The notes below the pieces were generated by a model, which worked only from the letters and a program-made list of their open reading frames with translations, searched no databases and was not told the DNA's origin. From the NCBI GenBank assembly GCA_030704615.1, contig CM060734.1:57164001-57228000 (forward strand): a DNA stretch of 64,000 nt. The letters run 5' to 3'. Positions 6,701-49,241 of the stretch are shown piece by piece (positions within the stretch are counted from its first letter, which is position 1; every line of letters starts with the position of its first letter). A program made the translations under genes and the position numbers. The stretch comes from Takakia lepidozioides (Eukaryota; Plantae; Bryophyta).

Positions 6701-6812
6701 CCTTTGGCCAGGGCGTCCTCAGTCATTGCCAGGAAATCGTCTCCTATATCCCCCCATAGAGCTCTGAATAACTCCACGGGTAGACCATCGGGGCCTGGTG
6801 ATTTGTCAGCCT
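3729..6812 (-). mobile_element. 5'-truncated L1/Tx1-like LINE (ORF2 RT and zf-RVT, frameshifted)
   Basis: KSPGPDG, NYRPITLLNASYKIIAK, LDFQKAFD, VRQGC, YADD, GGLGI motifs; C-terminal C..ETVEHCLLSC; (AAAT)n tail near 3725-3738; 10-bp TSD ACATCTTTAT at 3719-3728 and 6813-6822. Confidence 0.9.
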
Positions 6813-22989: not shown

Positions 22990-25900
22990 ATGGAAGCGTC
23001 GTCCGGCGTTCTGCTGACTGCGCATGCCAATGTCATACCCAAGGCCCTGTACTCTCGTTTCGGTGATGCGAGAGGCCTCGCGTCATGCAGCAGATCAAGG
23101 GGCTGGGCTGTGGAGCCGAAAGCGGCATCCCCCTTGGCAATGCACAGAGGACGGACTCCCTTGCATGTGCTTGCTATGGTGCCTCTTCAACCTTCAGGGA
23201 TGCCATTCAAATTAGGTGATAACTCGAAACCCTTTGCGGTTTCCTATATTGGGCGCTCTATGTTGTATGCACTGTAGGATCCAGGCTTGGAATTGTCTAT
23301 TGAGTAATTCAGCAGAAACGAATGTAGTATTGGCGAAGAAAAAACACGGGATAGTGGACAGGGACGATAATTGGTACATCTGGCACGTAGTTCAAGGCTG
23401 GAGCATGGAACAGCGCTGGCAGGAGTTCTTCAAAGATCCTTCACAATGGTTGGACTGCAGCGTTGACAAGGTGAGCTTTCGTCATGCATGATGTGAAGGG
23501 GTCTGAGGGAGTTTGACTGAACTCTGGTATGATAATGTTATGTGGACTGAATTGCACCCCTAGTTGTTGAGCGAAGTTCGAATCTCGCTTGCTCTGCAAA
23601 AAGTGCTTTTACTGTCAGTGTCGTAGGTTGTTCTCCCTCAGCTGGAGATGAAAGGAGGATGCGCCAGGGCTTTTTCCTGGAGTTTGCAATGGACTTGGGA
23701 GGGTTGAGACTGTGGGTGCTCATCTGCTCCCTGGTCGTCTTCACAGACCGCTTCAATATCTCAAGACTACAGGCAGTCCACACAAGAGGGCTCGTGGATT
23801 CAGGGTTCGTTCAGTCCTCCTTGGGAGAAAGGAATTGTCATTGCCATGCTACAGGATAAAGAACAGTCTGGTGATGGTGGAAAAACAGAGTGCAGTTCTA
23901 ATTCTGGTGTAAATGGTGGAGCTCCTTCCAAGCTTGCAGATGAAAGTGAGTATGACTCACAGTGACTTGATTAGAGGGGCAGCGTTGTTCACGCACAAGC
24001 TTGATTAGCATCTGTGTAAGTTTGGACATGTTCTTATGTTCCTCGTAGAGTCCATGGAGCTTGCGTAAATGTTGGTGAAAGCTACACTCCCTCATAAAGG
24101 AACCTGTCAAAGTGTTGATGCTGGCGGAGTTTCGGGCACAAAGGTCTACCATGGAGCATGGAGCCGTGCTGGCATGAGTATTTTAAAGATCCTTCACAAT
24201 GGTCAGACAAGCACAATGGCAAGGTGTGCCTCTTAGTGTATGATGTGAAGAAGTTTGTCCATTCTGCAAACATGGGCTCCTGTCAGTATCATGATTTGCT
24301 CTTTTTCCTGGTGTTTACAAGGTACGTGTGAGGGTCTACTTGGTCTTAGGAGGCCTTGTTTAAATCTATGGCTGCTCAGCTGCACCATGGTGGTTGTCAC
24401 AGACCGATCTGAGATCACCCGACTACAGACATAAGCAGCGCACACAAGAGGTTCTTTGGGTTGATGGTTGGTCGAATCCCCCTTGGGTGAAAGAAAAGCT
24501 AGCTGCTTTTGTGACGCATGGTCAAGGACAATTTGGTGAGGGCATCTTCTTCGTCAACACATTCTGGCATGTTTTGTCCTCTTAGAACTAATTTTTTCAT
24601 GCTATACTCTACCAGTTAGCTCGCTGGGTGGATCTGTATGATGGTTCTGAGTTATTTTGACATGTTACTGCCAATGTTGCAACAGGCAAATGTCCAAAAA
24701 CAGAAAACAGAGAAGCAGAGAAGCTTTGGAAGGAATACTTTTCGGACCCCAGTCAATGGTGGGACAATCAAGGCAAAAAGGTGAATGCCTGTTAAATTAC
24801 AGAGAGATGCAGACAACAAGATGCCTCACAAAGCTTTCTTGCAGTCTGGGTGTTTGTAGAAGATTTGTACTCTGTGTTATTCTCAGCTGCTAGCAGCAAG
24901 GGGCCTCATATATGCATTGTCAGTGCTGAGGTAGGGATAGCTGAGAGGGAGCAGGATGGAGTGTGGTCCAGATATATCGAAGACGGCCGGATTTCAAGCA
25001 CAAGAGTACCTATGATTTTCTGTGGATTGATATCTACAAGAAACCTGCATGGGTAGATGGTGAACTGGAAGCAGCAGCAGTGGCACAGTCGGTAAAATCA
25101 GGCATCTCCACCATGACCACAGCTTCTGAAAGAGGACCAAGACAGGGAGTCCACAATACCTCTTCTGCCACTTCTGGGCATGTGAGGACACTATGCGAGG
25201 CAGGGAAACTGAAAGAGGCTCTCCAGATGTTGAACCATGGAGGCATTTCAGCAGATGCAGATACTTATGTCTGTCTCTTGCGTAAGTGCATCAAGCTGAA
25301 AGGCCTGGAAGCCGGAAAGCAGGTGCACTCTCACATTGTCCAAAGTGGATTCAAGCCAAACATTTTTCTACACAACACCCTTGTGAACATGTATGTTAAA
25401 TGCGGGAGCATTGTGGATGCACATCAAGTGTTCAACAAGATGCCTGAACGAGGTTTGATCACGTGGAATATAATGATGGCAGGATTTACCAAGCATGGGC
25501 GTGGTAAGAATACTATGGAGATGTATGATCAAATGATGTGGGAAGGGGTAAGACCCAACCACATCACGTTTGTTTGTATTTGCAATGCATGTGCGAGGCT
25601 GGCAGACCTGGAAAAGGGCAAAAAGGTCCATGGTGACATCATCAAAGCTGGAATTGTACCAGATGTCATTCTTAACACTACCCTGGTGAACATGTATGCC
25701 AAGTGCGGTAGCATCGATAATGCAAAGGCAGTGTTCAACAATATGGCCGAACAAAATGTGGTGTCGTGGAGTGCTATGATTGCAGGATATGTGCAGCATG
25801 GATGTGGGATGGAGGCTTTGGAGACATATGAGCAAATGATGCGGGAACGGGTGAAACCCAATCACGTTACATTTGTTTGTGTCTGCAATGCGTGTGCGAG

Positions 25901-27893
25901 CCTGGCCGCCCTGGAAAAAGGCAAAAAGGTGCATGGTGACATCATCAAAGCTGGAGTTGTACCAGACGTCATTCTGAACACTGCCATCGTCAACATGTAT
26001 GCCAAATGCGGCAGCATCGAAGATGCAAAGGGGGTATTCAACAATATGGCTGAGAAAACTGTGGTGTCCTGGACTGTTATGATTGCAGGATATGCGCAGC
26101 ACGGGTGTGGAAGGGAGGCCTTGGAGATGTATAAGCAAATGATGGGGGAAGGGGTAAAGCCAGACCAGGCCATGTTTGTTTGCGTTTGCAATGCGTGTGC
26201 AAGCCTTGCAGCGCTTGAAAAGGGCAAAGAGGTCCATGGTGACATCATCAAAGCTGGAGTTGTACCAGATATCATTCTGAACAATGCCCTGGTGGACATG
26301 TATGCCAAAGGCGGGGGCATGGAGGATGCAAAGGGAGTGTTCGACAAAATGACTGAAAGAGATGTGGTGACCTGGAACGCTCTTATTGCAGGATATGCCC
26401 AGCATGAGTGTGGTATAGAGGCCTTGGAAACATATGAGCAAATGATGCGGGGAGGGGTGAAGCCCAACCAGGTCACGTTTGTTTGTGTTTGCAATGCGTG
26501 TGCAAGCCTGGCAGTCCTGGAAAAGGGCAAAGAGATCCATGGTGACATCATCAAAGCAGGAGTTGTACCAGATGTCATTCTGAACACTGCCCTGGTGGAC
26601 ACATATGCCAAATGCGGGAGCATGAAAGATGCAAAGGAAGTGTTCTCCAGTATGGTTGAACGAGATGTGGTGACCTGGAACACGTTGATCGCAGGATATA
26701 CACAGCATGGGTGTGGGATAGAGGCTTTGGAGACCTATGAGCAAATGATGCAGGAAGGGGTGAAGCCGAACCAGGTCACATTCGTTTGCGTTTGCAATGC
26801 GTGTGCAAACCTGGCAGCCCTGGAAAAGGGCAAAGAGGTCCATGGTGGCATCATCAAAGCTGGGATTGTACCAGATGTCATTCTGAACAATACCCTGGTG
26901 GACATGTATGCCAAATGCGGGAGCCTCAAGGATGCGGAGGTAGTGTTTGACTATATGGCCCAGCGAGATGTGGTGTCATGGACTGCGATGATTGCAGGAT
27001 ATGCCCAGCATGGTTGTGATATGGAGGCCCTGCAACTGTTTCAAGAAATGCAAATGGAAGACTTGAAGCTGAACGGTATTACGTTTATATGTGTTCTCTC
27101 TGCATGTAGCCATGCTGGCCTGGTGGATGAAGGCAGATACTACTTCAACTCCCTGAGTCAAGATCATGGCATCACTCCAGCAGTTGAGCACTTTGGCTGC
27201 ATGGTGGACCTTCTTGGCCGTGCGGGGCAATTGGATGAGGCAGAAGGCTTAATTTACAAAATGCCTATGAAACCAGATGCTGTGGTGTGGAGGGCCTTGC
27301 TTGGTGCCTGCAGAATTCATCGCAATGTGGAGATGGCTGAACGTGCGGCAACAGCTATTCTCAAGTGGGATGAACAGGACGGGGCGACTTATGTGTTGCT
27401 ATCAAACATCTATGCTGCAGCTGGCAGGTGGGACGATACTGCAAAGGTGAGAGAAATGATGAAGGTCAGAGGGGTTAGAAAGGAGCCAGGTCGCTCCTGG
27501 ATTGAGGTCGGTAACAGAGTGCACACATTTGTTGTAGATGACAAATCGCATCCAAAAGTTGAGGAAATCCATTCTGAGCTGAGAAGATTGTCTGGGCAGA
27601 TGATGGAGGCAGGGTATGTGCCTGATACGCACTTTGTATTGCATGACATGGGGGAGGAGCAAAAGGAATTTTCTCTGTGCCACCACAGTGAGAAGCTGGC
27701 CATTGGTTTTGGGCTGATCAGCACGGCCCCTGGGACGCCTCTCCGCGTTATCAAGAATCTTAGGGTGTGTGGTGATTGCCACACCGCCACCAAGCTCATC
27801 TCAAAGATTGCTGGGCGAGCAATTGTTGTACGGGACTCTAACCGCTTTCACCACTTTGAGGATGGGGTTTGTTCTTGTGGGGATTACTGGTGA
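22990..27893 (+). CDS. PLS-class DYW-type PPR protein with three N-terminal PDF motifs; predicted exons 22990-23215, 23391-23470, 23747-23945, 24144-24223, 24403-24535, 24686-24780, 24972-27893
   Basis: Paralog of 7140-11762. 5 PLS triplets, PG box KEPGRSWIEV, HSEKLA/CGDCH, SCGDYW*. In-frame exons: WQEFFKDPSQWLDCSVDK|(diverged) QDYRQSTQEGSWIQGSFSPPW; WHEYFKDPSQWSDKHNGK|TDLRSPDYRHK..LWVDGWSNPPWV; LWKEYFSDPSQWWDNQGKK|IYRRRPDFKHKSTYDFLWIDIYKKPAWV. Confidence 0.9.
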
Positions 27894-29670: not shown

Positions 29671-30616
29671 CCTATAGACAGAGACACGCACCTTGATCAC
29701 TCCACATGGTCCTAGTGCACATGGGTATGTAGTTCAACCTGGCCTAACTTATGTGGACAGCATGGAGCAGGTAATCATGAGCAAAGTGTGGGAACTAGGT
29801 GGTATCACAAAGATTGCCAGCTTTAGACTGGGGTTTTGTTACTGTTCCGAGTCAGAGAGGGAGTAGCCATTACTCCCTTTTTTTTCCCAGACCGCGTGGG
29901 TGGGTCCAAAAGGACCCTTATTATTTTTTTGTTTTTTTCCGCAAAGCCCTTTACAGGGGTCGCGGGAGCAAGAGGTGGTGTTCAAGCACCCCTCCTGCCC
30001 CTTGTAGGCAAGGTCATCTTTCGGGACCCCTTGTGAGGCTCTCGCGAACCTGCAAAGATGCCGCCATTTCCAACTCATCCGTTGCAACGTTAAAAGATGC
30101 CAACGTCTGCGAGGCATTCGTTAGAGCCACGTCCATGGACGGCAACACATTCGAAGCCCGCTTCAGTAGGGCATCAAATCGTGCAAACAACTCCAACGGC
30201 CCTCTCAATGCAACATCAAGCACGTCCTTGTGAGCAACACTTGAGGCCATTTCCAAAGAGCGCAAGAGATTAATGGGGCCACCAAGGCCTCCCCTCTTTT
30301 TATATGGATGGATGGATGGTTCCTCCTGGAGGCTGGATGGCTGGCCGGTTACTATTGTTGTGCCTAGAACGATACATCACCAGAACAGATATGGCAAATC
30401 AATTGGAACACAAATGAACACTAAAAGTTATAGGATGCATCTCAGCAATGTGCGTGACGGGGCATGTACATGTCACTCGTGAAATTTTGCATCATCCATA
30501 ACGACCATGGCTTTTTCTAACCCTAAACTGGAAAGTTGACATCATGCTGGATAACGCCTTCCATGTATGCTGGCAATCAGACCCTATTGTTGGAAGAGCG
30601 AGAATAGTAAGCTGCG

Positions 30617-32141
30617 ATGAGCGACGTCACCGCCAATCCTCGGCAGAGCGTGCAGTGCCGCCCAGTTGGTGGAGGTGTTGGTAGTGGCGACAGCGGTAGC
30701 AGCACAAAGCAAGCGAGCGAGCGAGCGAGCGTTGTGCAACAGTGGGCCCCACGCCAATCAAGCCGCCTCGATCGGCTCATCACTCAACTCATTCAGCCAT
30801 ACAGACAGCCAGCTCCAGCCCTGGCGAGCAACACAACAAATCCCACAACCCCTCTCATGTTCCTGATGCGCACCACCACCAGAAGCCAAGCTCCAGACAA
30901 TTTCAAGAAGCTTCGTCATCTTCACCACGGTCTCCTCCCCTGCGGATGTTCTTCCACTGGCGCCCCACCGACTGAAGAACACCCACTGCGTCTGTTGAGC
31001 CCTCTCCCACTGCGCCTCTCAGGTACGGTCCGAGGTCCCATGCTGATCACTTCTCCCCCAGGTTCTCCATCCCATTCTCGGCAGTGGCTTCAAGGCGTCC
31101 CTACCTCTCTTGGTCATGAGCCTCTTCACGCGCCTTCTTCTCCAGTTGTGCAACCCGCATTGGCGACCCCATTACTCTTCCCACAGCATCAGACGCCTAT
31201 CCCTGTAGACCGTACCCCGTGCCCAGCTTGCGGTCGCCTTTTTGCGCGCATCAGAGGGCTTGCGCGACATCAGCGCACATGTGCGGCTCTTCATCAGACG
31301 GGCACAGATGGTACTTCTCCATTTCAGCCCCGTGTCTTGCATGCACCACCTCCAGCCTCTGCATGGCATTGGCTTTCAGCTCTAGATGCACTGGGCGCGC
31401 TTCAACTAGGACTGCCATGGCCTCGTCTTTATACAAGAATCCCGATGCCCCTGCGTCATGAGGTCCAATGGGCACTCCGTCTGCCATTAGACAGGCTCGC
31501 TCGTGATCCTGATGATATACCAGCATGGTATTTTTTCTTGTTATTTCCTCAGTGGTGTGCCCCCTCGCGGCGGTCAGTCAGGGCACAGGGAGACGCACAT
31601 CCGTCTTCACCGTTTCTAAATCTGGAGATTGGGAGAGTCTACAAGATGAGCATTATTTACAAGCACTGGCTCTCGCGGCACGTGTGCCTTCGGCTTCCTC
31701 CACACAGCCACCATCATCGGCCCACAGGCGACTCCGTCATAGTCTCATATTAGGCCGTGTTGTCGAATACTCACGCACAGCCAGGGCTTTGGCACCTTTC
31801 ACTCCAGCGCCCCCATCAGCGGCTACTGTCACTGCCCTTGAAGCCCTTCACCCATCAGCTCAGGATATCCTTCCGCTCTTCGTCGAGGACTTTGAGCCAG
31901 ACCAGGATCTCGAGCTGGATCGGAAGGTCTTCACTCAGGCTTTTACGCGCTGTCCCCATTTTGCAGCAGCAGGTCCTTTCCGGTCTCTTGTATGAGCACT
32001 TATGCGACTGTTTCTCTCCACAGGACTTTGCCAGTGGCTTCTCTCAGCTATTTCAGGTATGCTCCTTTATTGCTGCCGGGCATATCCCTGCCCAAGTGGC
32101 CCGTCTCCTTGGGGCCTCCAGAATGTTGGCTATGAGCAAAC
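30617..32141 (+). mobile_element. CRE-like (RLE-type) non-LTR retrotransposon, 5' part (frameshifted)
   Basis: C2H2-like finger CPACGRLFARIRGLARHQRTC; downstream ..AAAGP.. and ARLLGASRMLAMSK, which joins in frame to PSVRPIAAREVFYRL at 49251 once the insertion is removed. Confidence 0.8.
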
Positions 32142-32911
32142 GAGGGCAGCAAAGCCGTGAGCATATTCCTGGATGCGTGAGCAGATTCAAAGCGTGAGCA
32201 AATTTCTGATGCGGACCCCAAAACCGTGGGAACAAGTGGGCCTATTGCCGTGGACGCCAACTTCACTACAACGACGCAATCTCCGCTCCATCAGACCGAA
32301 GACAGACAGATTCCATGACGACAAAGTGGCACGAATGCACGATGAAACATTCACGGATGAATGGATTTGGGATGGACGTAAAAGTGAAATGGATGAACGT
32401 TGGATGAAGCACGGATGAAAATTGTCCAGATGAGGGGACTATAGACAATTGTATGAGCATGTCTCGTGAGGGATCAGCAAGCGCAGGGACCAAGCATTAA
32501 GGTGTCGTCAACGACATCTTAAATCGCATACTCAACATGAAAAATGAACCCATGAAAATCGTTGCAAGATGTCGTGCACCTAAGCATCGTGCCACAACAT
32601 ACATTGTTGTCCACCACACAATCTAAGCACACAATCCTAGAAAGCTATACCACAATCGCCCCCCTAGCTGGTGGTTAGGTCCCTCTAACTCCAGATAGCT
32701 ACAAGATGTAATAGCCACAGCTGTACTAAGTCCTCTATCACTGTCCCTATTGTACTCAAACTCTATAGACCAAGAGGTCGGGTACAAGAGCAACCCCATC
32801 GTTAGTTGTCGTCTTGCAATCTGTGAACTTGAGTCAGGATCTCGTGTGTTGGTCTCCTAGTAGCTTGGCCTTGCATTTCTTGTTAGCCTTCCATGGTTGT
32901 ATCCACTCCCA

Positions 32912-33060
32912 CTATCCAATGCAATGCGGACATAACCAATCCCCATCAGGAACCATCTCAAGAGGTGGAGTCAAGCATCCCATATGCCAACCTCTAGAGC
33001 ATTTGATCACACACCAGCATGGTGGCTGCCCCTCTAGCAGACCCACACAAGATGCACCTC
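32912..33060 (-). pseudogene. PHD finger at the C-terminus of the Gypsy integrase (1-bp frameshift)
   Basis: CILC..MLVCDQ/CSRGWHMGCLTPPLEMVPDGDWLCPHC is a C4-H-C3 PHD pattern with the conserved W. Confidence 0.85.
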
Positions 33061-34330
33061 AAACTTGCAGGTACCACTGCCAGGTTTGGGTCAACCTTTC
33101 CATCAACATTTGGAAGGTGACATGGCGCGCAATTACGCACATGGTCCTTCCAAATCATGCCATCCCGACCCTCCAAGATCAGGACTCCTGAGGGCAACAG
33201 CTCTTGAACCCTCAAAATAGTACGTCCTGCAGTCACATCCAAGGTCGTAGGAGCAGTCTACTGCAGATAAACATAGTCACCAGGGTTGAATCTCCGAACC
33301 CTAGGACGATAGCCCCCACCACGTATGGTAGCATACCTCAACGTATCACGATGTTGTGCAATGGCAAGGTTCTCGAAAGCCATGGGCATGACTTTCTTGA
33401 ACAACTCTGCACGCTGCTCACATGCATGTGCCCACACGTCCGGATCGTCAAGGTTAAGAACTGTAGCAGCTTCTCTACGAATGGATGTAGGCAAATCCGG
33501 CTCTCGGCCAAAGAGAAGAAAGTATGGTGAGAAGGAGGCAAGTGATGCTTGCTTGCTGAACCTGTAACCCATGGCTAACCAGGGTAACTGAAGGTCCCAA
33601 TCTCCTAGGTGTCCCTTCTCCAAGCCATACTTGCGCAAACCCCTCTTTACTGTCTGAACAACTCTCTCTGCCAAGCCATCGGCCTCAGGATGATCCCGAG
33701 AAGTGGTGGGGTGGTCTATCAAGGCCTTGTCACACAAAGCCTGAAACTCCCCCAAGAACTCTCTCCCTTGGTCCGTGAGTACCTCAGCTGGAGCACCGAA
33801 TCGGCTAAGCATACAATCCAAGAATGCATACGCAGCTCCCTCACTAGCCTTATCAGGCAATGGAACCAATTCAATCCACTTGGAGAAGTGCTCCACCATC
33901 ACCAACACGTACTTGTTGTGGCGCATGGTCAGTGGCAACGGCCCTGCGAAGTCAAGACTCCACCTGTAGCCCAATCCCATGATCGGAAGAGGGTGCAATT
34001 GTGGAGTAGGGGTGTGGAATGAAGCACGCACCCTGTCACACACCATGCACCTAGCCACAAATTGTTGCACCTCTGTGTGCATACCACGCCACCCATACTG
34101 CCCCTGCAGTAGACTATGAGTGCGTCGCACCCCAAAATGCCCCAACTCCTCATGGGCATGCCGCACTAACCGTGCCCGCTGTGTTGGGTGAGGCACAATC
34201 CTCACTCGACCATCCTCCCACACTCAGAGCAGGTGTGTCCCCTCCCACTTGAACCTCTTGGCTTGTTGTAGGATCCGATCCCTCTCCTTGGCAGTCACAG
34301 TGGCTGCAGTGTCTCCAGTGCGGAGGTAGT
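33060..34330 (-). pseudogene. Gypsy integrase
   Basis: HEELGHFG..CMVC (HHCC), SLDFAGP, TDQGREF, GLAER (DDE), FNPGDYVYL; in-frame stops at ~33258 and ~34225. Confidence 0.92.
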
Positions 34331-34370
34331 CCAACACAACTGAATCCTCGTGTATATCTTTGGCACCACC

Positions 34371-35173
34371 TTACTCATTGTTGGCCTCAGGGTCCTCAGA
34401 CACTTGATCTACAATCATCCCTGTTGCAGGTCCAACCTGGCCTTCCGCTGCCAAGATACACAGAAATGCAGATGCATGCCATCCGGGCACCATCTCCTCG
34501 TCCGTCTCACCATGCCACCGAGCTCCAGTGTCATCCTGCTGGCTCGTGCAACGATTGCGACTCAACCCATCTGCATTGCGATTGACCAAACCCGGTCGAT
34601 GCACCACCTGAAAGTCATACTCTTGAAGGATGAGTGCCCACCGTGCAAGCTTCCCCGTAAGCTTGTCTGACTCCATCAACCACTTGAGTGGTTGGTGATC
34701 CGTGACAAGGGTGAAGAGATTGCCGTATAGATAGCACCTGAAGTGTGCCACGGCCCACACTGCAGCTAAAGCATTCTCCCTCATATGAGCTATACTTAGA
34801 CTCTGCAACATTGTTCGAGCGGCTAGCATAAGCCACTACGAACTCTCTTCCCTCATCGTCCACCTGTGTGAGCACCGCTCCAAGCCCCAGCATGCTCCAA
34901 TCTGTATGCAGCTGAAAAGGACGCCCCCTGATAGGTCGTCTCAAGATGGGCACCGAGGTCAACCTCGCCTTGAGCTCTTGAAAAGATTGTTCATGCTCAT
35001 CTTCCCACTGCCACTCCTGGTCCACCTTGGTCAGCTTGGTTAGAGCCTTTGCAATGGCACTAAATCCCTTAACAAACCGTCTATAATAGTTTGCTAACCC
35101 CATGAAAGCTCGAACTCGGCTCACATCCGTGGGGCGTGGAACCTGTGCAATGGACTCTACCTTAGTCTGCTGT
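34371..35173 (-). pseudogene. Gypsy RT connection and RNase H
   Basis: RAFMGLANYYRRF, LHTDWS..GLGAVL, VAYASR, TDHQPL, RWAL, NADGLSR; frameshift near 34770. Confidence 0.92.
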
Positions 35174-36349
35174 CACTACAACAAATTGCGGCTTTTACGT
35201 CTCTGTGTTATGACTGCAAATGCAGTCATGGAAGCCATTTACGACTTCCTGACTCTGCAGACGTAAAGACCTAGTCAGTTGTGACATGGCAGATATGACT
35301 CTCCAGGCTGGCTGTCACGTGGCACCAGAGCAGCTGTGGGGGTAGTCATACACGCTGGCTTTACTGAATGACTGAACGGACAGTGTAATCCATGTCAGCG
35401 GCTGTGCAAGAGTGGCACGTGCTCGATGCAGGAAATGACACGTGGCAGAGTGTTTAGCTCTCCATGACTGCGAACTATGACTACGGGTGTGCTAATCCGG
35501 TTGCAACACGTGGCGCATTGCAGTTTTTACACGTGGTCCATCAGCAGATTGACATGTGTCATGATGGGTGTTTTTTTGGGGTGTATTGCTATTTTTTTAC
35601 ATATTTGTATTTCTGCCACGTGGTGTAGTACTATTGGAGAGTGAAAATAGATGTAGTCATTATTATGACTATGATAGCAGTCATGTACATGTCTATTACA
35701 ACAATGAAATATAATATATAATACAAAGAGAACAAGGCAGCAAGACATAACTGCAACAAGCTGAGCAAAACCAAGAGATTGCATACCATCTCTATTTACC
35801 AATCTATTTATCATTATCATTTTTGTTGCGATCTAAAAATACATTAAATAGTCGCATGTTCTCATGTGAATTATTTTGTCTAACTATAACACTTTGAAAA
35901 GTGTTCACCCAGAATCTTCTAACTACTCATGTATTCCATCAATCTGCAACCCATCAAAAACGACTTGCATGGCTTTAAGAATTACTACAGCAAGGACATT
36001 TGTTTGTTTACCAAGTTCTTGCATAAGATGCACCAACCAATATTGCATTGTGAGACACTCACTCGCTATACTCCAAAGCGTCCAGGGAAGGTCACTGAGC
36101 AACCTGCCAAGGCGGAAACAATTAAGAGAATTATCTAATACCATATATGAAAAACCAATGCCAGTGTTGTTTATGGTAACTTCTATCCCATGTCTTAAAC
36201 AAACCAAAGCAAAAAGGTTGGTGTGTATTGGCGAAGTCGTCAGATACTTCACAAAGAAACATGCACTAAAAATGAAACCCAGGATGATAGGAAGGTCACT
36301 CACGTTTATACAAGAGACATCTTGCCCATTGCCCAACACCCTGCGTCAC

Positions 36350-39300
36350 CCACACTCTATCTCTATTCCTTCAGCTATCCATGCCTCTGCACAAATCAAG
36401 CATTCATCCTTGCCTTGCTGCTAGCAGCTGACAATGATAGCCTACATTTGTTCTAGGAAACACCCAACTCAGCGTAGCACACTAGTTCCTATGCTGAATT
36501 GCGTCTGCTACTCTCTGAAATGTAGCAGGCATTCACCTTTCTGCCCCGGTTGACCCATCAGTGACTGGGCTCAGATAACTATTCATTCCACAGCTTCTCC
36601 TCATCTCTGTTACCTATTTTTTGACACTTTCCTGTTGTCACATTGGCAGTATCATGTCAAAGTCACTCCAAACTAGATTCACTCAACCAGCTAACTTGCA
36701 GAATTGAACATGTAAATTTAGGGCCGATTCTGATAAGAGGGAAAAACAGGGTGAAATGTGTTGAAGAAGATGCCTTCATTAGCAGTGCCTGATTTTATCA
36801 CTTGTGCCGCTGCTCCCAGTTGACCATCTACCCATGCAGGTTTCTTGTAGCTATTGATCCACAGGGAATCACAGGTAATCTTGTGCTTGAAATCTGGCCT
36901 TCTTGGATGAATCTGGACCCACACAAAATCCCTGCTCCTTCAGCTATCCATGCCTCTGCACAAATCATGCATACATCCTCGCCTTGCTGCTAGCAGCTGA
37001 CAATGACAGCCTAGAATTGTCAAAGCAAACACTAGCAGGGAAAACAGGGTGAAATATGTTGAAGAAGGTACCTTCATCCTTTTCTCCATCATTTGCTTTC
37101 AGGTGTCCAAAGCCCCATCCCGCGCTCCTGCTCTGCACACCCTTCAAGCATCGCATTCCACGACACCACATCTAGTTCAGCCATAGTGTTGAACACTCCC
37201 TTGGCATCCTCAATGTTCCCACATTTAGCATACATGGCCACCAGAGCCATGTTCAGGATGACATCTGGTACAATTGCAGATTTGATGATGTCACCAGGGA
37301 TCTCTTTGCCCTTTTCCAGGGCTGCAGACGCACTGCAAACGCACACAAACGTTATGTCGGCGGCCTTCACCCCTTCCCCCATCATTTTCTCAAAGGTTGG
37401 AGCCTCCATCCCGCACCCCAGCTGTGCATACCCAGCAAGCATCGCACTCCACGACACCACATCTCGTTCAGCCACAATGTTGAACACTCCCTTTGCATCC
37501 TCAATGCACCCACAATTGGCGTACATGTCCACCAGGGCAGGGGCAGTGTTCAAAAGGACATGTGGTAATTTGACAGGCATTCACCTCCTGACTTGGCTAT
37601 TCCCAACCCATCCTGCCATTGGCAAGAGATTCCATAGAAACTGATAGTTGTCTGTTTGACTGTATAACTATGTATCTCTTGCTTTCTTACAGCTTGTACT
37701 GTGACACGCGTAATGCTCTTGTTGTGTTGAATCATTTCACGCCTTCAGGTTTCAGAACAAACATTACCGTCTTTCTTTATCAGACATGTGCACCAAGACA
37801 GAATCTCACCAAAAGATTGTTGGTGTTCAACAGTACCATACATGAAGATAACTAGCACCAAAAGGGCATATGAAGCTTATTCTGCTCTCCACTGGTATTA
37901 ACTTGCACCAGGACTTTCAATGGCTGTCTTCCAGTCCACCCACGGCTCGCTGTAAATGGCTTGCAACCTACAGATTTTCAAGAGAGCTGATTACCATGAA
38001 AATTTCAAAACTGGCTTTACAAACCTAATAATTCAAGCATAATCAGCATTCAAGCTAAGGAAGCTTTACAAGCATCGTGTTGCGAGTAAAGCCTTGGCAA
38101 TGTCACCAGGAAATCCCTAGCTGATTGGATGACACTGAAATAATGGAGCTTGAAATCCGGCCCTCTTGGTTGAATTTGGGCCCACACTCTATCCCTGCTC
38201 CTTCAGCTATCTATGCCTCTGCACAAAATCCTTCAGCTATCTATGCATACATCCTTGCCTTCCTGCTAGCAGCTGACAATGACAGCCTAGAATTGTTCCA
38301 GCAAACACCCCCAACCCTACTTATCAACGAGCAATGAGCTAACTTACAAAATTCAATATGCATCTGAGGGCGTCTGATGAGAGGGCAAAACATGCTGAAA
38401 TAGGTCGAAGAAGAAGGTGCCCTCACCACACTGTCCTTGACCTTGTGTCATGACCCATGGAGGATTTGACCTTGTGTGTGATGCTTGTGTCTGTAGTCAG
38501 GTAATGTCGGATTGGTCAGTGAGAACTTGCACCACGGTGCAGCTGAGCAGGCAGACTTTGAAACACGGTCTGCTAAGACCAAGCCGACTCTCCCAAGAAC
38601 CTTGTAAACATCAGGAAGAATATCAAATCATGGTACTAACAGGAGCCAACAACCCACATTTGCAGGATGGACAAAATTCTGCACATCGTACATTTCAAAA
38701 AAACCACACCTTGCAATTGCGGTCGCACCCTCGTGAAGGATCTTAAAAAAACTCATGCCAGCTCTGCTCCATGATTCAAATTCAGGGCCGAGTCTGATGA
38801 GAGGGCAAAATAGGCTGAAATAGGTCGAAGAAGAAGGTGCCCTCACCACATTGTCCTCGACCTTGTGTCATGACCCATGGAGGATTTGACTGAACATGAA
38901 CCCAAGATGACCTCTAGTGTGTGCTGCTTGTGTCTGTAGTTAGGTAATGTCGGATTGGTCAGTGAGAACCACCACGGTGCAGCTGAGTGGGCAGAGATTG
39001 AAACACGGCCTACTAAGACCAAGCTAACTCTCCCAAGAACCTTGTAAACATCAGGAAGAATACCAAATCATGGTACTAACAGGAGAGCCAACCCACATTT
39101 GCAGGATGGACAAACTTCTTCACATCGTACATTAAGAAAAAGCCACACCTTGCGATTGCGGTTGTCCCACCATCGTGAAGGATCTTTTAGAAACTCATGC
39201 CAGCTCTGCTCCGTGCTGTAAAATCAGGGCCGAGCGGGTAGAGATTGAAACACGGCCTGCTAAGACGAAGCTGACTCTCCCAAGAACGGCGGGCTCCCAG
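36350..39300 (-). pseudogene. Captured, scrambled PDF-exon, intron and PPR fragments
   Basis: IHPRRPDFKHKITCDSLWINSYKKPAWV (36800-36915); PPR motifs 37100-37560; ~420-bp tandem duplication (38372/38792) of the PDF2 exon-intron unit; WHEFLKDPSRWWDNRNRK|gt at ~39150-39200. Confidence 0.85.
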
Positions 39301-39559
39301 CCGAAACCTCCTCGCACACATACCCTAGCGTTTCTAGGGTTGCTTGCTCCAGATGCGAAGGTTGATCCAACTGCGGGCCTCCCATGCATGTTTGCCCTCT
39401 CTCCCGCTCGCTCGCTCTAAGTCCCAACCCTCTCTCTCTCCCTCCCGCTCGCTCTAAGTCTGTTCACGCTACCGTGATGAGCAACTTTTTAAGTTTTTTA
39501 ACCTTTTTGTAAACCCTAAAAGCCCCTTTTTGATTTTTTTTTGTTTTTTATTTTTTTCC

Positions 39560-39740
39560 TTAAAGGAAACCACAAGCCCTTGAGGAGGGGGAAAATTCAC
39601 CCGCCTTCATTTATGGGCCATAAGACCTACAGGACGATCAACGTCAAGACATACCGTCTCGAACAATCCCACACACGGGATAAGGGCAGCGGGTTTGAAC
39701 CCCAAACCACAAGGGCGACACACTGTGCACTTACCAGCCG
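39560..39740 (-). mobile_element. tRNA-derived SINE-like copy (5'-truncated)
   Basis: Shares GGGCAGCGGGTT(T/G)GAACCC..ACACTGTGCACTTACCAGC with 60460-60536; B-box-like GGTTCAAACCC on the minus strand; A-rich tail. Confidence 0.55.
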
Positions 39741-40203
39741 ATGTGATTTTTTTTAAATCTTTGTTTTTTTTGGGTTTTTTTTAATTCATTCTAGTGGTAA
39801 GAGTCTCCGTTTTTTTAAGATATAAATACTCATATATTATATATATAACCAGAAAAGCATGTGTCGACACGTGTAGTCATGTAGTGATTCATCCATGTGA
39901 TGATCTGGCATAATGCATTAGAGTGAGAGTCATGAAGTCATATGTCTGTCTTGCAATATGCACACGTCATTCCAGTGTAGCCATGACCGTGACTGGTAGT
40001 CATATCTGCCATGCCAATATTCGTGGTCAAACATGTTTGACCTGTGTTGCGCAGAGTCCGAAGCCATGCAGTCGCATATACGCCTTCTCCAGACCTGCAT
40101 TATGACTTCAAAAGCATTTTACGACTGCAAATGGCATTTCTGCCACAAATCTGTCATGACTGCGCACCCATGGGAGTCATAAAAGCCGCAATCTGTTGTA
40201 GTG

Positions 40204-40955
40204 TGTACCCCCAATCCTTCAGGATATATCATGTGACCCAGATACTCAATCTGGTTGTGGAAAAACTTGCACTTTCCCGGATGTAACTTCAATCCGTGCG
40301 CCCTCAAGCGCTCAAATACCCCTTGAAGGTATCTCTCATGCTCTTCCACCGTAGCACTAAAGATGATGATGTCATCTATGTAGCACCGAGCAAACTCCAC
40401 CCCTGCTAGAATCCTGTCCATGACTCTCTGAAACTCTGCCGGAGCGTTCTTAAGCCCAAATGGTAAGAACCGCCACTGGTATAGGCAATCCTTCCCGTGC
40501 TCATTGATCCCCCAGAATGCCGTCTTTTGCTTATCCGCCTCCTTGATCGGCAACTGCTGATATCCAGATCGTAAATCCAACGTGCTAAAGACCTTGGCAT
40601 GCCCAATGGCATCAAAGATCTCCTCTGGTGTTGGCATGGCATACTTATCGGACTTGGTCTGACGATTTACAGGCCGGTAATCACCGCACATACGTCTCTC
40701 CGTCCAATTGCCAAAGACATCCTTCTTGGCTAGCATCACTGTGGCTGAAGCATACTCTCCCCCAGATAGCTCCACCAAACCAGCCTCCCAAAGGTCCTGA
40801 GTTCTCATCTGAATCAAGGACCTCTCCATGTCACTGTATCTATAGGGTCTCCGAAAGATTGGCGTGTCAATAGCCAATTCAATGCGAATCTCTTGACCCT
40901 TCAGTGCTCCTAAGTCCTTCAAACTGAAGGCAAAGCAGTTCCTGTAAGCCCTCAA
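40204..40955 (-). pseudogene. Gypsy reverse transcriptase core
   Basis: PIFRRPYR, RMCGDYRPVN, LDLRSGYQQ, LPFGLKNAP, YIDD, KCKF, YLGH. Confidence 0.95.
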
Positions 40956-41317
40956 GAACCGCCGTATACGTCGTCTCTCTCCTCCGTGACTGCAACCTTG
41001 AGTCCAGCAGGCTTAGAGGTAGAAGACGCGTCCCGTGGTTGTTATGCTGCAACCTCTTGAGCAGTGACCACTGCCTCCTCTGTCAGTGACAATGTCTCAT
41101 TCTACCCCATCATCCCATCCTTGAGGACCTCCTCAATCCGAGAAAAATCCCCAACCTGATCCATCACCGCCGCCTTGGCTGCCAACTCCTTCTGAACCTC
41201 GAGCACCTCCAACGTGTGCCATGGATGTGGCCTGCACTTCGTGGTCCTCACCTGCTTGCCCCCACTCGCTGCCTGTACCGTCTCGATAGGCAGGGAGACC
41301 ATGAAGGGAAGAGTACT

Positions 41318-42300
41318 TCATACTCTGCGCTGCTCAGTCATAGTCAAGCTGATAATCCAGGTCAAGCAATTGAGATCTATTGCTTGCCCCAACACCTGAC
41401 GACGTGATGCCTCAGAAAGAGATGGCACCACCGTGGTACCTGTGGTAAAACCCATCGCCCGCTCGCGCTCGTCAGCATTGGGCTCCACTAATTGTTGCAA
41501 CTAGCTATCCCACAAGTGGCCAGGTCCACCATCCCGAAAAGCATGGGATCCTGGGAAGCTGAGCAGTGTAGGTAATGCTGCTCATGGTTGACCCACCCTG
41601 TTGACCACTGCCAAAGGCGAACGGTCATCGTGTCTCACACGTTGAGACTGCCTCCCTGTGTCCAAAATGCTATCCACTGTGAAGTGTGCTGGCCGCTGCA
41701 CCCCATCAAATGCACGCTTGAGCAGTGCGGGTGGCATCAAGATAGTCCACCATAGCCGTGGACGATGAGCCCATGACCCCACTGCAGCTGCATCCAGCAA
41801 CACTGCTGACCCAAGCCACGACCGGACTTGATGCACACCGGCCATCACCCTGGCCCGAGAATCACCCATCAGTGGTACATTCTCCAAGATGTATGCTGGA
41901 GATACAGCTTGATGAAGCTGCAAGTGGCGCAAAATCCGCACCATCTCCCAAAACAGACCCGTCCTCGAGTATCGCAATCCATTGCCATGCCTGGCTGATG
42001 AATGCCCTTGGCAGGGCCAACCTGCCACTACCAGATCAATGGAGCCAACCCGCTCCAAATCCTGTGCCCCCAGCAACGAAATGTCTGCTGGCAAGGCTTG
42101 TTGGTATCCACGAACTGCAGACACTGGCAACAAATCAGGGTACTGCTGTACCAACTGAGCAACATGGCGCAGTGAGACGCATCGTGCAGTCTCATCCCTC
42201 TCCACATACATGTAACGTTGAACTCGTACACTTGCCTGCTGTACTGCAGCCAATCTAGTGCTGATCCCGCCAAACAAGTCCAGAAGACATATGCCTTCAT
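41318..42300 (-). pseudogene. C5 cytosine DNA methyltransferase domain (DNMT3-like) within the Gypsy polyprotein
   Basis: Motif I LLDLFGGIS, II VERD, IV VVAGWPCQGHS (catalytic PC), VI ILENV, VIII HRPRLWW, IX ERERAMGF..GTT, X RRQVLGQAID; same frame through two stops (~41582, ~41502). Confidence 0.9.
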
Positions 42301-42603
42301 CCGGGCACTGCCACACAAGAGGTGTGGTGTCCAATGGCAACAACTGAGGTGGTCCTGGTGCAATCACCGCACTCTCCTCTTCTCCTGACGATACGAAGGC
42401 CTCTACCCAGGCTTGTTGTACCCGTCCATCAGCAGCCTGCTGCAAATCCTTGCTCGTACCCCATAATGGAGTGTGAGCGACCATGGCAGGCAACTCCGCC
42501 GTACCATGCAAGTCATCCTGCTCTGCTGGAGGTGGCACATCCTCTGCATGGGCATTGCCTTCCAGCAACTCTCCAGGCCAACTAACTGCAGCTGTAAAGG
42601 CGG

Positions 42604-43797
42604 CTAGTGTTGGTAGCTTGCCCGCTGGGCAGCCGCAATACCCCCAATGAATGTCACAGGGAGCTGTGCACGACGACCATCCCCTGACTGCCATCCAGGC
42701 CTGTAGGATGCTGACTCCTCCCAAAAGTCCAGGATGAAGCCCATGGGATATAACACTGCCCCACCAACAAGGACATCGTAAGAGACCGCGTCTGTCACAA
42801 TGGCCTTGGCTTGCATCACTGAGCCATCTACAGGATGATCTGGTTGTAGTCCAATGGCCAACTCACGCCGTGTCATGCCCCGAGCCTGCTCTGATCCTTC
42901 CAGAGATGTATGTATCTAGAAAGGACAAGGCTCCATATCCGCCTCCATGAGGCCCAAACCTGCAATAGCAGCTCTGCCCAACATCAGTGGCTGAGCTCCT
43001 GAGTCCAACAAGACCCGCAGTGGCCGGTACTTCTTGCCTGCCGGTCCACTCAAAGTGAAAATGCCTCCCTGGTTGTCTAACAAGACAACTCCAGGTGTCA
43101 CCATGGCGCGCTCAAAGGCTGGCCTAGCTGGCAGCTCCGTCAACCTGGTAGCTGCAGCTTGCCATGGCGCAGCCGTGGCCGTCTTGACCCTCAAATCCGA
43201 GGATCCCTCTGCCACTACACCTTCCAGTAACTCCGCAGAAGATGAAGTGACCTCCCCACTCTCGCAGAGTGTTGCTGCTAGTCTGAACACTGCAGCTGGT
43301 CTTACCCCCGGCGTCGCAATCATGGTTGCCGAGAATAGTGGGGCTTGACACATAGAGGTGGCTGCCCCCAATAACACACCGGCTGCACTAGCCTTGGTAG
43401 CAGGTGTCAGTGCTGCACGTGTAGCTCTCCCCAATGGCATAGTAACCTCCGCCTCGGTAACAGTCGGGCGAGAACTAGGTGCCATGGATGGCGTCGACAC
43501 TGTCTCCGCCAATGTGAATGACTGAGGAAGCCTCGCCTGACGGCTTGCCTCCCCACGCTGTGGATCCAATTCTACCTCTGCACCTCGTGGCTCAGGAACT
43601 CGTGCTGCTCCTCGAGTCATGGCTACAGCAGACTCCACCTGCACTAGTGGTAGTGCTGCTCCGCACATGAATCCCATGCCTCCCATATCTCCTCCCTCAG
43701 GAGCAGGAGGTGGACCATCCCGCCTGGGAGCCGGTACCACCTGAGCTGTAGCCATGGCAGCGAGCCTCTGCTCTAGCTGCTGAAGCCGGTTGGCCAT
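42604..43797 (-). pseudogene. Gypsy gag-pol linker and aspartic protease
   Basis: VLLDSGAQ active site and downstream YDVLVG; in-frame stop at 42916. Confidence 0.85.
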
Positions 43798-43899
43798 GTC
43801 TTGGTCAACACCCTGACCTCCGCATCCTTGGCCATGTTGAGCTTGCCCTTGGCCTGCACCTCGTGCCCGACCACCTCGTCCTCTCTGGGCTGGTCCATC

Positions 43900-45215
43900 T
43901 CACCCCCGGCCACCATTGTTCCCTTGGAAATGGCCTGGGCGCAACTCAGGGTGCAAGTCATAACACTGGGCATCTCCATGCCCATACTTGTCACAACGCC
44001 CACACTGCAACTGTGCAGGCTGTGCTTGTGTCGGCCTTCTGCCACTCTCTGGGCAATCTCTCTTGACATGGGGTCCTCTACATGTCCAACATATCACCCC
44101 TGGTTGTTGTTGGCCTGCAAAGATGCCACGGGCCTCTGCACCTGAGGTCCCCTGTAAGCTCCATGGAACTTGGGTTGGGCAACCTTGCCCCCCTGACCAC
44201 GTTGTTGGGCAGTCCCTTGTACCTATTGGCACCAAGCTGCACCTCGTGCAGGCATGTCCTTGCCAAATCCAATGGTAACAACTCGCTCCTCCACCATGTT
44301 GAGCTCAATCCGCTCAGCCAGCAGAAACACATCCGCTAATGTGGGTTGGGCTGCTTGTAACAGGGTTGCATCCCGCACCCTTCTCTTGAGCTCCTTGTCC
44401 AAAATTCCATACTAGAACTGGACTGCCTGAGCTTCAGTAACCCCTTGGGTCACACTTATCAAGCGCCTCATCCGAGTGTAGGCCTCTCGCAAGCTCTCAC
44501 TGGATTTGCGTTGGAAGTCTTGCAAACTTCGCAGCTTCTCTGTCCGTACACCTTGGTAGTTCCTCCGCAACTCCTGGAAGAACTCCACCACCGGGTTGAA
44601 TCTAGGCACATGTGTTGTAATTCTGGCAGGAGGAGTAGTAGCACCTTTTGAACGGGTACCACCTACACAAGTGCCGGCACTACTTGTTCCACTACTAGTG
44701 CTTGTAGTTGGAGATGTTTGTGTAGCTGCTGGTGTCACCACTGCCCTTGTGCCTCTAGTGATTGAGACATAGTTAGGTGACCAATTCTCTCGCCACTCCT
44801 TAATCTCCACCGCATGTCCCCGCCTAAATTCATGGTAATCATACATGGGCGGCCCCTCAAGGTGCTGGAATAGCCCCTTCCACGCCATAAAGGGCGTAAA
44901 CAGTTGTGGATTGCGCATTTGCTGCAAATCACACCAACTGTCAAACTCTTGTATAAAGTCATCAAGCTCGATGGTGCCCACAGCTCCAGAGTACCTACGT
45001 GGCCCCTTGGTAGCTCCATACATCTCCTCCATCGTGTCCCACAACAATGGCACGGAAATGACTTGCACCCTCGGCGAGAATCCTCCTGACTCCGAGTCTG
45101 AACCTTCCTCAGTAGACACTGAAGGTGAAAGTGGTCTAAACCGCACACCTTGTCTTGTGTACCCACTAGTATCGCTGGTGTTTGTACCGGCACTCCCCTC
45201 AGCAGCTGGTGGCAC
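43900..45215 (-). pseudogene. Gypsy gag with two zinc knuckles
   Basis: RRYSG..LDDFIQEF, LQDFQRKSSESLREAYTRM, CWTCRGPHVKRDC and CGRCDKYGHGDAQC. Confidence 0.8.
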
Positions 45216-46029
45216 CTCCGTGATGAAAACTCATAACCCAACCGGTTGTCAACCTGTCTCTAATCCCCACTTTCTACAAGGTAACCGAGTAAAGAACCTG
45301 TTGCGGCTACTGGTTCAAGCAGGAATAATAGGTTTATAACGTAGACCTGTACCTGCACCTGCATCCACCGCAAGCACTCCTATGGTCTGCTGGTCATCAA
45401 CCCAGCCTCACCATAGAAGAAACACTGGTGGTCTTGCTGGTCATCACTCCAGCCTCACCACCGACAGCATACTCTAGGATTGGCCGGTGATCAAATCCGG
45501 ACCAACCTCCTATGAAAACAAGCGCCCACACAAAGCTAACATGGCGCACAGTCAAGCATGCAGGTGTGGAGGGGATCCAAACACAAGAAAATCAAGACCG
45601 CAACTCCCCCACAACAAAAACACTCCACAGTGTCGCTCCTGCAAGGACACCCCAGCCCAAACCCGGACTGACTCTTGCCTCCACCTACGGAAAGGTTTTG
45701 GCCTACAGAGAGGGTGAAATACTATGGAGAAGAGAAACTAAAGCAATTCCTAACCCCAGAATGCTCTCATCCCACCACTCTCCCTCCTGTCTCTATCCAC
45801 TCGCTTGTATGGCCGTGGCAAGTATCCTTCAATATCCCTCAATCAATCCTTCAAGAGCTCTTCAACATTGTCCACCAAAGCTCCTCAAAGGGTCCTCCAA
45901 GGACCCCAAAGATCCTCCAAACACTCCTCCAAGGACCCCAAAGATCCTCCAAATACTCCTCCAAGGGCCCTCAAATATCTTCCAAACAATCCTCCAAAGG
46001 CCCTTAAATTTCACTAAGTCATTTCACTG

Positions 46030-46430
46030 TTGATACCTTAACAGAGGTATAGTCTGAGGTTGCTAGGGTCCCTTATGTTGATGATACATTTACACATGTA
46101 TAGTCTGAAAATGAGGGTTCTGTTTGATATACTAACAGAGGTATAGTCTGAGCTGATTAGGATCCACATATGGTGATACCTCAACAGAGGTATGGTAAAA
46201 GGGACAAGCTCCTGTTTGGTATACTAACAGAGGTATAGTCTGAGCTGATTAGGTTCACATATGGTGATACCTCAATAGAGGTATAGTAAAATGGACAAGC
46301 TCTTGTTTGGTATACTAATAGAGGTATAGTCTCACATTAGGGTTCACATATGGTGATACCTCAACAGAGGTATAGTCAAAGGGACAAGCTCATGTTTGGT
46401 ATACTAACAGAGGTATAGTCTGAGCATACA
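46030..46430. repeat. Tandem repeat, ~45-bp subunits forming a ~90-bp dimer
   Basis: AACAGAGGTATAGT recurs every 42-49 bp. Confidence 0.85.
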
Positions 46431-46929
46431 CTACTAGGGTTTGTAATTTTGTGTGTTGGGACTGTCTCACATGCCAAGTGAGGTGTCGAGCCTCACTTGA
46501 GACATGGAGATAGGTTTTCCCCTTGTGAGTGTTGAGGAGGCTCATCTTCTTGTAGTTGAGCCTCCATGAGCTTCTCTCACCTCCATGCAAGAGAGTAGCT
46601 ACCGCGTGAGCAGTTCACGTGAGCACGCTCACGCTTTAAGTAGTAAACGTGAGCATAATCCCTTACGCGTGAGCAGATTAGTGAATGAGAGCCTACAACC
46701 GAGGGAAGAAGATGACCTATTGTCATGGACAAATACTACACTGTACAGACACAATCTCCACCCCATGCGACGGAAGAATCCTTCATGGGTGACGACCATA
46801 TGGTACGAATGTGCGATGAAAAGCTGTCGGATGAATGGTTTTGAGATGAATGAAAAAATGAATGGATGAATGTTGGATGACTTTGGATGAAAAATGAGCA
46901 ACATGAATGAACCATGGTGCGTGTGCAGG

Positions 46930-48310: not shown

Positions 48311-49241
48311 CGTGTTTTGAAATGTTTATTTATAAAGCACGAGTTCACCTCTCTGCCTTCTTTAGATTTGGGTGTGAGCATTTCTCTCAACCTTGGAAAC
48401 CGTTTGATTCAAGGTGGCCTCAACTCTGCACCTCTGCTTTCAATTTCAATGTAGTCTTGTGTTTGTTCTGTGTTATGCCATTATCTTGTTTGATTGCTTT
48501 TTTTGATTCCTACACAAGTTGGGCTAGCAGAATATATGTGGACTTACATTGTTTGTGTGTGTGTACAGGAGCCCAAGGTCGCCACGGTTCCTCCCTTTCT
48601 TCGCATATCCGCAATTTTTCCCAAGTCCAAAAGCAGATTTTAAATTGTCATGTTATGCGGAGGCTGCAGCTTCGGAATTTAGTCTCCTCTCTTCTACCCC
48701 TACTGTGCTTTTAAATAGAGAGGGTTTTGTGCAAAGCAGGGCTAGTGTCTTCATAGACAGTTCTGCCTTCATTTTGGACACCGACTCCGATAGCATAGAA
48801 TATTCTTCGTCGGAATGAATCTGCAGTTTTTAAACTATTTAGTTTGAAGCACCAAATGGCCTCTCTACCTTCTTTGCAATTGTGTGTCAGCAACTATGTC
48901 GACTTCTGATACCTAGTGAAAGGACAATCACAACCCTCACCAGTGGGCAGAGGTTCACTCTAGAGCTAGGTGGATTTAACAACCACTACTCAAAAATGCA
49001 TCTTAGTTTTGCATTCATCCACAAACTACATTCATCCATGTGCCATTCGTCGAACATACATTCATCCCCCATTCATCCATCGTTCATCCATCATTCATCC
49101 ATAACGATGAATGAAGTATGCATGATATACTAGACACAACCCGCAGTAATAGGTCTTCTAGGCCGAATAGGTGTCCGCGGTTATAGGTGAGCACATGCAG
49201 AAGCGTGAGCAGAATTTTGCTCACGAAATTTAGCAATCCCC

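Follow-up and report, generated by a model that had tools for sequence, protein, structure and literature searches.

Gypsy retrotransposons that encode a DNA methyltransferase (DNMT) have been described from streptophytes as Gypsy-DNMT3, with KnitGypsy-Dnmt3 of K. nitens as a Gypsy-Dnmt3 element carrying DIRS-like repeats (de Mendoza et al. 2018, PMC5890265), and the name is used again in a recent preprint (10.64898/2026.05.21.726589). PHD fingers are common in retrotransposons (PMC6673714, PMC8557442), and in Gypsy elements of Chlamydomonas they have been proposed to limit harmful insertions (PMC9940879, PMC6673714, PMC8557442). REM1, as presented in papers citing Perez-Alegre 2005, is a chromovirus with a truncated, reverse-frame integrase, and targeting through a chromodomain has been attributed to MAGGY (also by way of a citing paper). 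Fusions of PHD fingers or chromodomains with transposable elements have been reported, as have the EpiLTRs, which join a reader and a writer (10.1101/2021.11.30.470311, 10.64898/2026.05.21.726589); the EpiLTRs are called distinct from Gypsy-DNMT3 (10.64898/2026.05.21.726589).

A PHD finger in retroelements, a DNMT in Gypsy, and a reader with a writer in one LTR element are therefore already in print. No description of a single green-plant Gypsy lineage characterised by both PHD and DNMT was found in the literature covered, which took in few subscription journals; preprint supplements may list the lineage. The main text of the REXdb paper (PMC6317226) mentions neither PHD nor methyltransferase, and the word PHD is absent from the main text and three text supplements of PMC5890265, although the drawing in its Fig. 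4c may show one. The additions made here are the class of the reader, the position of the lineage outside the chromoviruses, two positions for the DNMT, and a conserved stop codon.

The element analysed lies on the - strand of a 64-kb window (64,000 nucleotides, the whole stretch studied) from Takakia lepidozioides. It resembles KnitGypsy-Dnmt3 in having its DNMT upstream of the reverse transcriptase (RT) in a Gypsy element, and in a lineage where DIRS-type split direct repeats accompany Gypsy domains; it differs in its land-plant host and in a stop codon that cuts the DNMT from the RT, the two sharing one ORF in the published element (PMC5890265) and in the K. nitens protein P0033. P0033 and the window element fall within one RT-RNase H clade (support 100/99), and a second K. 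nitens protein, P0009, has a PHD finger. The element files under the Gypsy-DNMT3 (KnitGypsy-Dnmt3) kind, with the DNMT3 label taken from PMC5890265 and the separate ORF of its DNMT treated as an expression variant, not as exclusion from that kind. By description it can also be likened to Gypsy-7a_cRei of Chlamydomonas (PMC9940879) and to REM1, both Gypsy polyproteins with a PHD finger, but the published legend of Gypsy-7a_cRei lists no DNMT (PMC9940879). Like the EpiLTRs it combines a reader with a DNA-methylation writer in one LTR element, whereas the EpiLTRs, from Cymbomonas and Euglena, carry a chromodomain with DAM and a DNMT4-related DNMT (10.64898/2026.05.21.726589).

Domain order and the closing PHD finger

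Pfam matches on the - strand of the window follow the order gag (weak), C5 DNA methylase, RT, RNase H, integrase and PHD, and the features of the element are as follows.

32570..32700, - strand: 3' end, with a conserved stretch, a polypurine tract at ~32670-32656 and one terminal 'B' repeat at 32654-32570
32912..32914, - strand: pol stop codon, two codons after the last zinc ligand
32921..33056, - strand: C4HC3 PHD finger at the integrase C-terminus, recognised by ligand spacing and Pfam, split by a one-base frameshift at ~33005-33002
33117..33295, - strand: SH3-like C-terminal module of the integrase, modelled with five strands in a relative, lacking the GPY/F motif and interrupted by a premature stop at 33260-33258
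33261..34223, - strand: integrase, HHCC zinc-binding domain and D,D(35)E core (Pfam PF17921, PF00665; D91, D151 and E186 of the segment)
34374..35172, - strand: RT connection and RNase H (Pfam PF17919, PF17917), frameshift near 34768
35174..40203, no strand assigned: nested insertion, not retrotransposon sequence, bounded by CACTA-type inverted ends and a 3-bp target duplication and holding PPR gene fragments
40204..41012, - strand: reverse transcriptase (Pfam PF00078, E 3.5e-32)
41042..41044, - strand: in-frame stop between DNMT and RT, conserved in the family and followed by CAR-YY, a readthrough-like context
41369..42352, - strand: C5 cytosine methyltransferase domain (Pfam PF00145, E 9.7e-11), with in-frame stops in the window copy
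42919..43899, - strand: segment with an aspartic protease motif (DSG) near 43000, no Pfam match on the window segment
44415..45230, - strand: gag (Pfam PF03732, weak, E 0.0018; tblastn to relatives)

The element is a decayed Ty3/Gypsy copy with the order gag-protease-DNMT, stop, RT-RNase H-integrase-SH3-PHD. It has the gag-PR-RT-RH-INT order, the D,D(35)E integrase and the polypurine tract of that group, and its relatives add a short (4-bp) target duplication. Asp_protease_2 stayed below the Pfam cut-off on the open relative L031. The window DNMT is 42% identical to the K. nitens domain (P0033) and keeps motifs I, IV (PC), VI (ENV), VIII (RxR) and X.

The nested insertion of 5030 bp parts the end of the RT (40204) from its continuation (35172), so that DNMT and RT lie 5 kb off from the remainder of pol. 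In family contigs from other runs under the same organism label, the match to the window coming from the RNase H side breaks off at 35173, and one contig of 2173 nt spans 34250-35173 and 40204-41419, running from the last DNMT motif through the RT and RNase H and stopping just before the integrase. Since these contigs are continuous across the insertion site, DNMT and PHD belong to one element, as the initial annotation had supposed, and their residence on separate elements was rejected. The insertion itself has 27-bp near-perfect inverted ends, appears non-autonomous and holds PPR fragments at ~36300-37600; it looks like a Pack-CACTA-like capture from the local PPR gene family.

The zinc ligands of the finger read C-x2-C...C-x2-C-x4-H-x2-C...C-x2-C from 33056 down to 32921, giving all eight C4HC3 ligands at the correct spacing with a Trp before the last pair. 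Pfam PHD (PF00628) scores 26.7 bits on the C-terminal half alone (cut-off 24, E 5.5e-6) and 42.2 bits on the whole finger with an X at the break (cut-off 24, E 8.4e-11). One extra base splits the finger in the window copy, and further breaks (stops at 33260-33258, 34226-34224 and 34373-34371, besides the frameshift near 34768) mean that there is no open pol ORF; this copy makes no functional protein. Sister contigs from the other runs lack the PHD break and the other breaks checked, so the damage is particular to the window copy, and the finger is open both in these sister copies and in relatives. The closest relatives, at 73-81% integrase identity, have their stop 1-13 residues past the last Cys, establishing that the finger closes the pol ORF, as was noted at the outset. 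A chance motif and an adjoining host PHD gene were rejected as sources of the finger, as was a chromodomain continuing the ORF beyond it, Pfam being empty over the next 25 codons and the relatives stopping there.

At its 3' end the window copy lacks the A2 repeat and the second B copy found in intact relatives, keeping one B only, and matches of family contigs to the window end at 32570 and 32650. A search of the 64-kb window found no LTR pair, and neither the 5' end nor the target duplication of this copy could be fixed. Among the best 80 of 234 metagenome loci, DIRS-like split direct repeats of the form A1...PPT-B1-A2-B2 were recovered as A pairs in 5/15 loci and as B pairs in 21/48, and 4-bp target duplications flank 6 of the 9 loci for which both ends were found. 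These six perfect duplications share no motif beyond A/T richness, and none fits NCGN, the target preference of Phygy (PMC6317226). Around the polypurine tract, ~52 non-coding bases (32648-32699) show ~90% identity in many relatives, whose coding parts show ~71%; the predicted fold of this conserved stretch is no better than that of shuffles (z +1.24).

Spread of the lineage and its relation to chromoviruses

Searching with the integrase returned 334 long relatives at E 1e-30, of which the best 120 were taken. PF00628 was found in 109 of these 120, most of the other 11 ending ahead of the PHD position, and the chromodomain PF00385 in none; nor did a Pfam scan of 18 element proteins return a chromodomain. 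Named sources among the 120 include Riccia, Calypogeia, Klebsormidium, Haematococcus, Tetrabaena, Pleodorina and Volvox, look-ups added Coleochaete (a transcriptome assembly) and Closterium, and a DNMT search added Marchantia (14 of 19 matches) and Sphagnum. The lineage is thus abundant in bryophytes, with at least 14 Marchantia gene models in a plant tractable for work on both targeting and element-encoded methylation, and some of what is counted as 'DNMT3' or 'PHD' genes in algae and bryophytes consists of retrotransposon ORFs.

Most of the metagenome loci (best 80 of 234) come from related samples and nearly repeat one another, so that counts on them are not independent. The PHD finger was reached in 62/66 loci with enough 3' flank; all eight ligands are in frame with the integrase end in 34 loci, 13 of which are also stop-free. 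Where both flanks are present, PHD and DNMT occur together in 27/30 loci, bearing out across family copies the pairing seen in the window; one of the three exceptions, L064, ends inside the tail. Between open copies, dN/dS over the 45 codons of the finger is ~0.05 (L031/L022) and ~0.10 (L031/L041), and that of the DNMT ~0.13, all rough values with synonymous sites near saturation; such low ratios imply purifying selection on the PHD and likewise on the DNMT. The finger is a conserved, selected tail of the integrase and a trait of the lineage. Some PHD-bearing members (e.g. P0093, P0069) have no detected DNMT.

Algal members such as P0065 (1540-1659) and P0067 (1570-1967) carry tails of 80-430 residues past the finger with no Pfam match; one tail type may be Tudor-like, judged by eye, and an ESM Atlas query with one such tail gave no match. 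An RT scan of viral contigs yielded only 3 spurious 21-residue matches. In the same collection, histone H3-like genes occur on 38 contigs (L084-L121); their N-terminus is canonical, and several have inserts near residues 28-40.

The initial annotation had placed the finger 'in place of a chromodomain', which holds for position only. As in chromoviruses (REXdb, PMC6317226), a chromatin reader stands directly past the SH3-like integrase module: the finger starts 19-21 residues past the last SH3 motif, and the chromodomain ~21-25 residues past its counterpart. An AlphaFold model of the relative P0003 reaches pLDDT 83-95 over the SH3 strands and the finger (80-row alignment; 44 for an 8-row fold), and Foldseek matches to it were all integrases, none informative for the PHD. 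Profile alignment of PHD-lineage and chromovirus tails matches only as far as the first SH3 strand (probability 46%), so that beyond this strand the case for homology is made by the model and by likeness of motifs.

The lineage is otherwise unlike chromoviruses in its class of reader, its separate RT-RNase H clade, its split repeats as opposed to two plain LTRs, and its want of the GPY/F motif (0/44, vs 53/58 in chromoviruses). PHD/DNMT elements form one RT-RNase H clade apart from the chromodomain clade, supported at 99 by FastTree (238 rows), at 100 in a quick mixture tree and at 100/99 in a careful tree, with outgroups that were mostly animal Gypsy elements rather than REXdb references such as Athila, Tat, Phygy and Selgy. 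AU tests (LG+G4, 28 of the 238 rows) rejected nesting with the sampled algal or land-plant chromoviruses (p 0.001-0.009), left a sister position to chromoviruses standing (p 0.35), and were borderline for a grouping with all chromoviruses minus the Chara pair (p 0.056). Replacement of a chromodomain is not supported, the lineage not being nested in the sampled chromoviruses and lacking GPY/F.

Position of the methyltransferase and the conserved stop

The stop between DNMT and RT recurs at the matching place in open relatives (L031 5083-5085; L022 4661-4663). In L031 it separates ORF1 of 1369 codons (gag-protease-DNMT) from an ORF2 of 1047 codons (RT-RH-INT-PHD) in the same frame, one stop apart, and L022 has the same two-ORF layout. 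A stop followed by CAR is present in 30/41 loci (among the best 80 of 234) and in the window; the strict context CAR-YYA, known for readthrough in plants (PMC3542737), is found in 4/41 loci and the window, with CAR-CCY in 26 more. We infer from this context that ORF2 would be made by readthrough of the conserved stop. A stop between DNMT and RT makes an unusual gag/pol junction, with protease and DNMT on the abundant side.

DNMT shares an ORF with RT and RNase H in P0020, P0030 and P0033, which is not so in the window sub-lineage. A second sub-clade, monophyletic with support 100 and with chlorophytes as its named members, has the DNMT between RNase H and integrase; in 34/39 DNMT-positive proteins the domain lies there or directly before the integrase. 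The PC of motif IV is kept in 22/23 pre-RT copies vs 7/35 in the algal sub-clade. There (P0058-P0121) the motif is mostly EC, with the Cys kept, and in copies from Pleodorina and Volvox it has degenerated, although the finger persists. The PHD thus keeps its place on the integrase as the DNMT changes position and degenerates, which argues for a finger that serves the integrase.

These observations bear on whether PHD and DNMT form one reader-writer unit, comparable to the ADD and catalytic domains of DNMT3, that marks the new insertion. Their co-occurrence (27/30 loci among the best 80 of 234), the catalytic PC motif and low dN/dS of the pre-RT copies, and the algal sub-clade in which the DNMT shares an ORF with the finger would all fit such a unit. 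Against it stand the separate ORFs of the window sub-lineage, the altered or degenerate motif IV of algae, the PHD-bearing members in which no DNMT was detected, and the expression of KnitGypsy-Dnmt3 in yeast, where methylation was not detected in an experiment that its authors judge inconclusive (PMC5890265, section 10). The analogy with DNMT3 drawn in the initial annotation also fares poorly on layout: DNMT ends ORF1 and PHD ends ORF2, ~1000 residues and a conserved stop apart with RT, RNase H and integrase between them, which makes DNMT3/ADD-like coupling unlikely, and we consider a joint unit very improbable.

Predicted ligand of the finger and its likely use

The best PDB sequence matches of the finger include CHD4, PHF12, PHD1 of KDM5B, KDM5A and Lid, ATXR5, PHF21A, DPF3, BAZ2A/B, ORC1B, UHRF1 and AIRE, with no ING, BPTF or TAF3 finger among the best 60 of 77 matches. 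Most of the matched fingers read unmodified H3, and the UHRF1 PHD is largely K4-insensitive. For part of the matches, reading of unmodified H3 is documented in PMC4225485. With its LLCD, G-(W/Y)-H and P-x-G-x-W, all conserved in the family, the finger is like those of the KDM5 PHD1, ATXR5, UHRF1 and BAZ2 type.

Residues were mapped onto KDM5B PHD1 for 88 relatives, the other 32 of the best 120 not fitting the pattern. The R2-binding Asp (equivalent of D328) is kept in 83/88, the equivalents of L325 and L326 are aliphatic in the mapped relatives, and the Trp of the A1 pocket is present, although the pattern required it and it is not an independent count. The position of the aromatic-cage Trp of H3K4me3 readers, which we take to be two residues before the His ligand, is Gly in 83, Ala in 3, Pro in 2 and Trp in 0 of the 88. 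The cage residues themselves are described in PMC4225485. Unlike in KDM5 PHD1, the K4-contacting acid ahead of the first Cys and the equivalent of E321 are poorly conserved: the D308 position is Asp or Glu in 12/88 and Ala in the window, and an acid within four residues of it is found in 47/88 and not in the window. In class, the finger resembles the unmodified-H3 readers (KDM5-PHD1, ATXR5, UHRF1) and not the ING2/BPTF/TAF3 type, and it is predicted to bind the free H3 N-terminus without reading K4me3. With the acid at the D308 position not conserved, K4me3 might not be excluded, and reading may be confined to A1 and R2.

The most likely use of the finger is chromatin-guided integration. We put at about 0.55 the probability that it grips the unmodified H3 N-terminus and thereby holds the integration complex on nucleosomes, probably with a preference for chromatin free of H3K4me3. 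By analogy with established PHD structures, the conserved Asp after the third Cys would hold H3R2, the Trp of the P-x-G-x-W loop would line the pocket for H3A1, and the Gly that replaces the cage Trp would preclude K4me3 reading. Readthrough of the conserved stop would supply ORF2, protease cleavage would free integrase-PHD from DNMT, and the two domains would then act apart: the PHD would help to choose the target, and the DNMT would modify DNA of the element or of the host. Counted in favour of an H3 tether is the PHD-bearing Gypsy-7a_cRei of Chlamydomonas, a candidate member of the lineage, whose insertions are intergenic 2.6x more often than chance, a bias that its authors note could stem from selection (PMC9940879). 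The window copy lies within an older, putative DNA transposon that itself interrupts a LINE remnant, a single anecdote in favour of the tether, and within a gene-rich PPR cluster, which counts against that reading.

The same contacts could serve a general nucleosome tether, in which H3 A1/R2 is bound whatever the state of K4 and integration efficiency or nuclear retention is raised with no steering. Conservation of the A1/R2-contacting positions and not of the K4-contacting acid, the UHRF1 PHD among the PDB matches, and the absence of a common motif beyond A/T richness from the six target duplications are what such a tether would predict. However, the fingers that head the list of PDB matches all belong to the cage-less class, of which KDM5B PHD1 loses more than 15-fold in binding with K4me3 (PMC4225485), and the intergenic bias of the PHD-bearing algal Gypsy (PMC9940879) would be unexpected, so that we hold unsteered tethering to be possible but unlikely.

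PHD fingers can also bind non-histone partners, and the finger might instead contact the integrase itself or a host factor whose N-terminus is H3-like, or be structural. Selection was measured on 45 codons only and is silent on the ligand, but the residues of the H3 A1/R2 pocket are conserved from chlorophytes to land plants, and we think a non-histone or structural role highly improbable.

Should the finger steer integration, as in the preferred reading of an H3 tether, it would be a second, independent reader-based solution to targeting beside the chromodomain, and one in which the absence of an active mark, rather than a silent mark, is read. A wider scenario, as a whole rather unlikely, would make this a Gypsy lineage that is unclassified, separate from the chromoviruses and of the same age as green plants, and that puts pre-silenced copies into silent chromatin. 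Its component steps would be a leaky stop yielding DNMT at Gag-like levels, with cDNA methylated inside the particle or shortly after leaving it; rarer integrase-PHD delivering that cDNA to H3K4-unmethylated chromatin; and an algal branch that moved the DNMT beside the integrase and altered its catalytic loop.

In the surrounding window, a LINE-like RT frame is split into 30611-32143 and 49241-51264, and a 9-bp duplication flanks the intervening 17-kb insert (~32142-49242), which has imperfect inverted ends and is likely a DNA transposon. Four layers are thus nested: LINE, putative DNA transposon, Gypsy and CACTA element. Tandem arrays lie at 46916-48316 (~166-bp units) and 46030-46425 (~100-bp units), and the ~166-bp units hold a palindromic core found again at 32483-32528. 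PPR genes of the PLS type, built on 303-bp repeats, are clustered at 8517-11762, 24945-27893, ~1400-3200 and 61900-63900; the gene at 24945-27893 has an open frame of 982 codons with a DYW end, which points to organellar RNA editing in a land plant. A 719-codon frame at 17588-19747 gives weak CCCH and SRI matches, and a second LINE-type RT remnant, unrelated to the split one, lies at 4952-6810.
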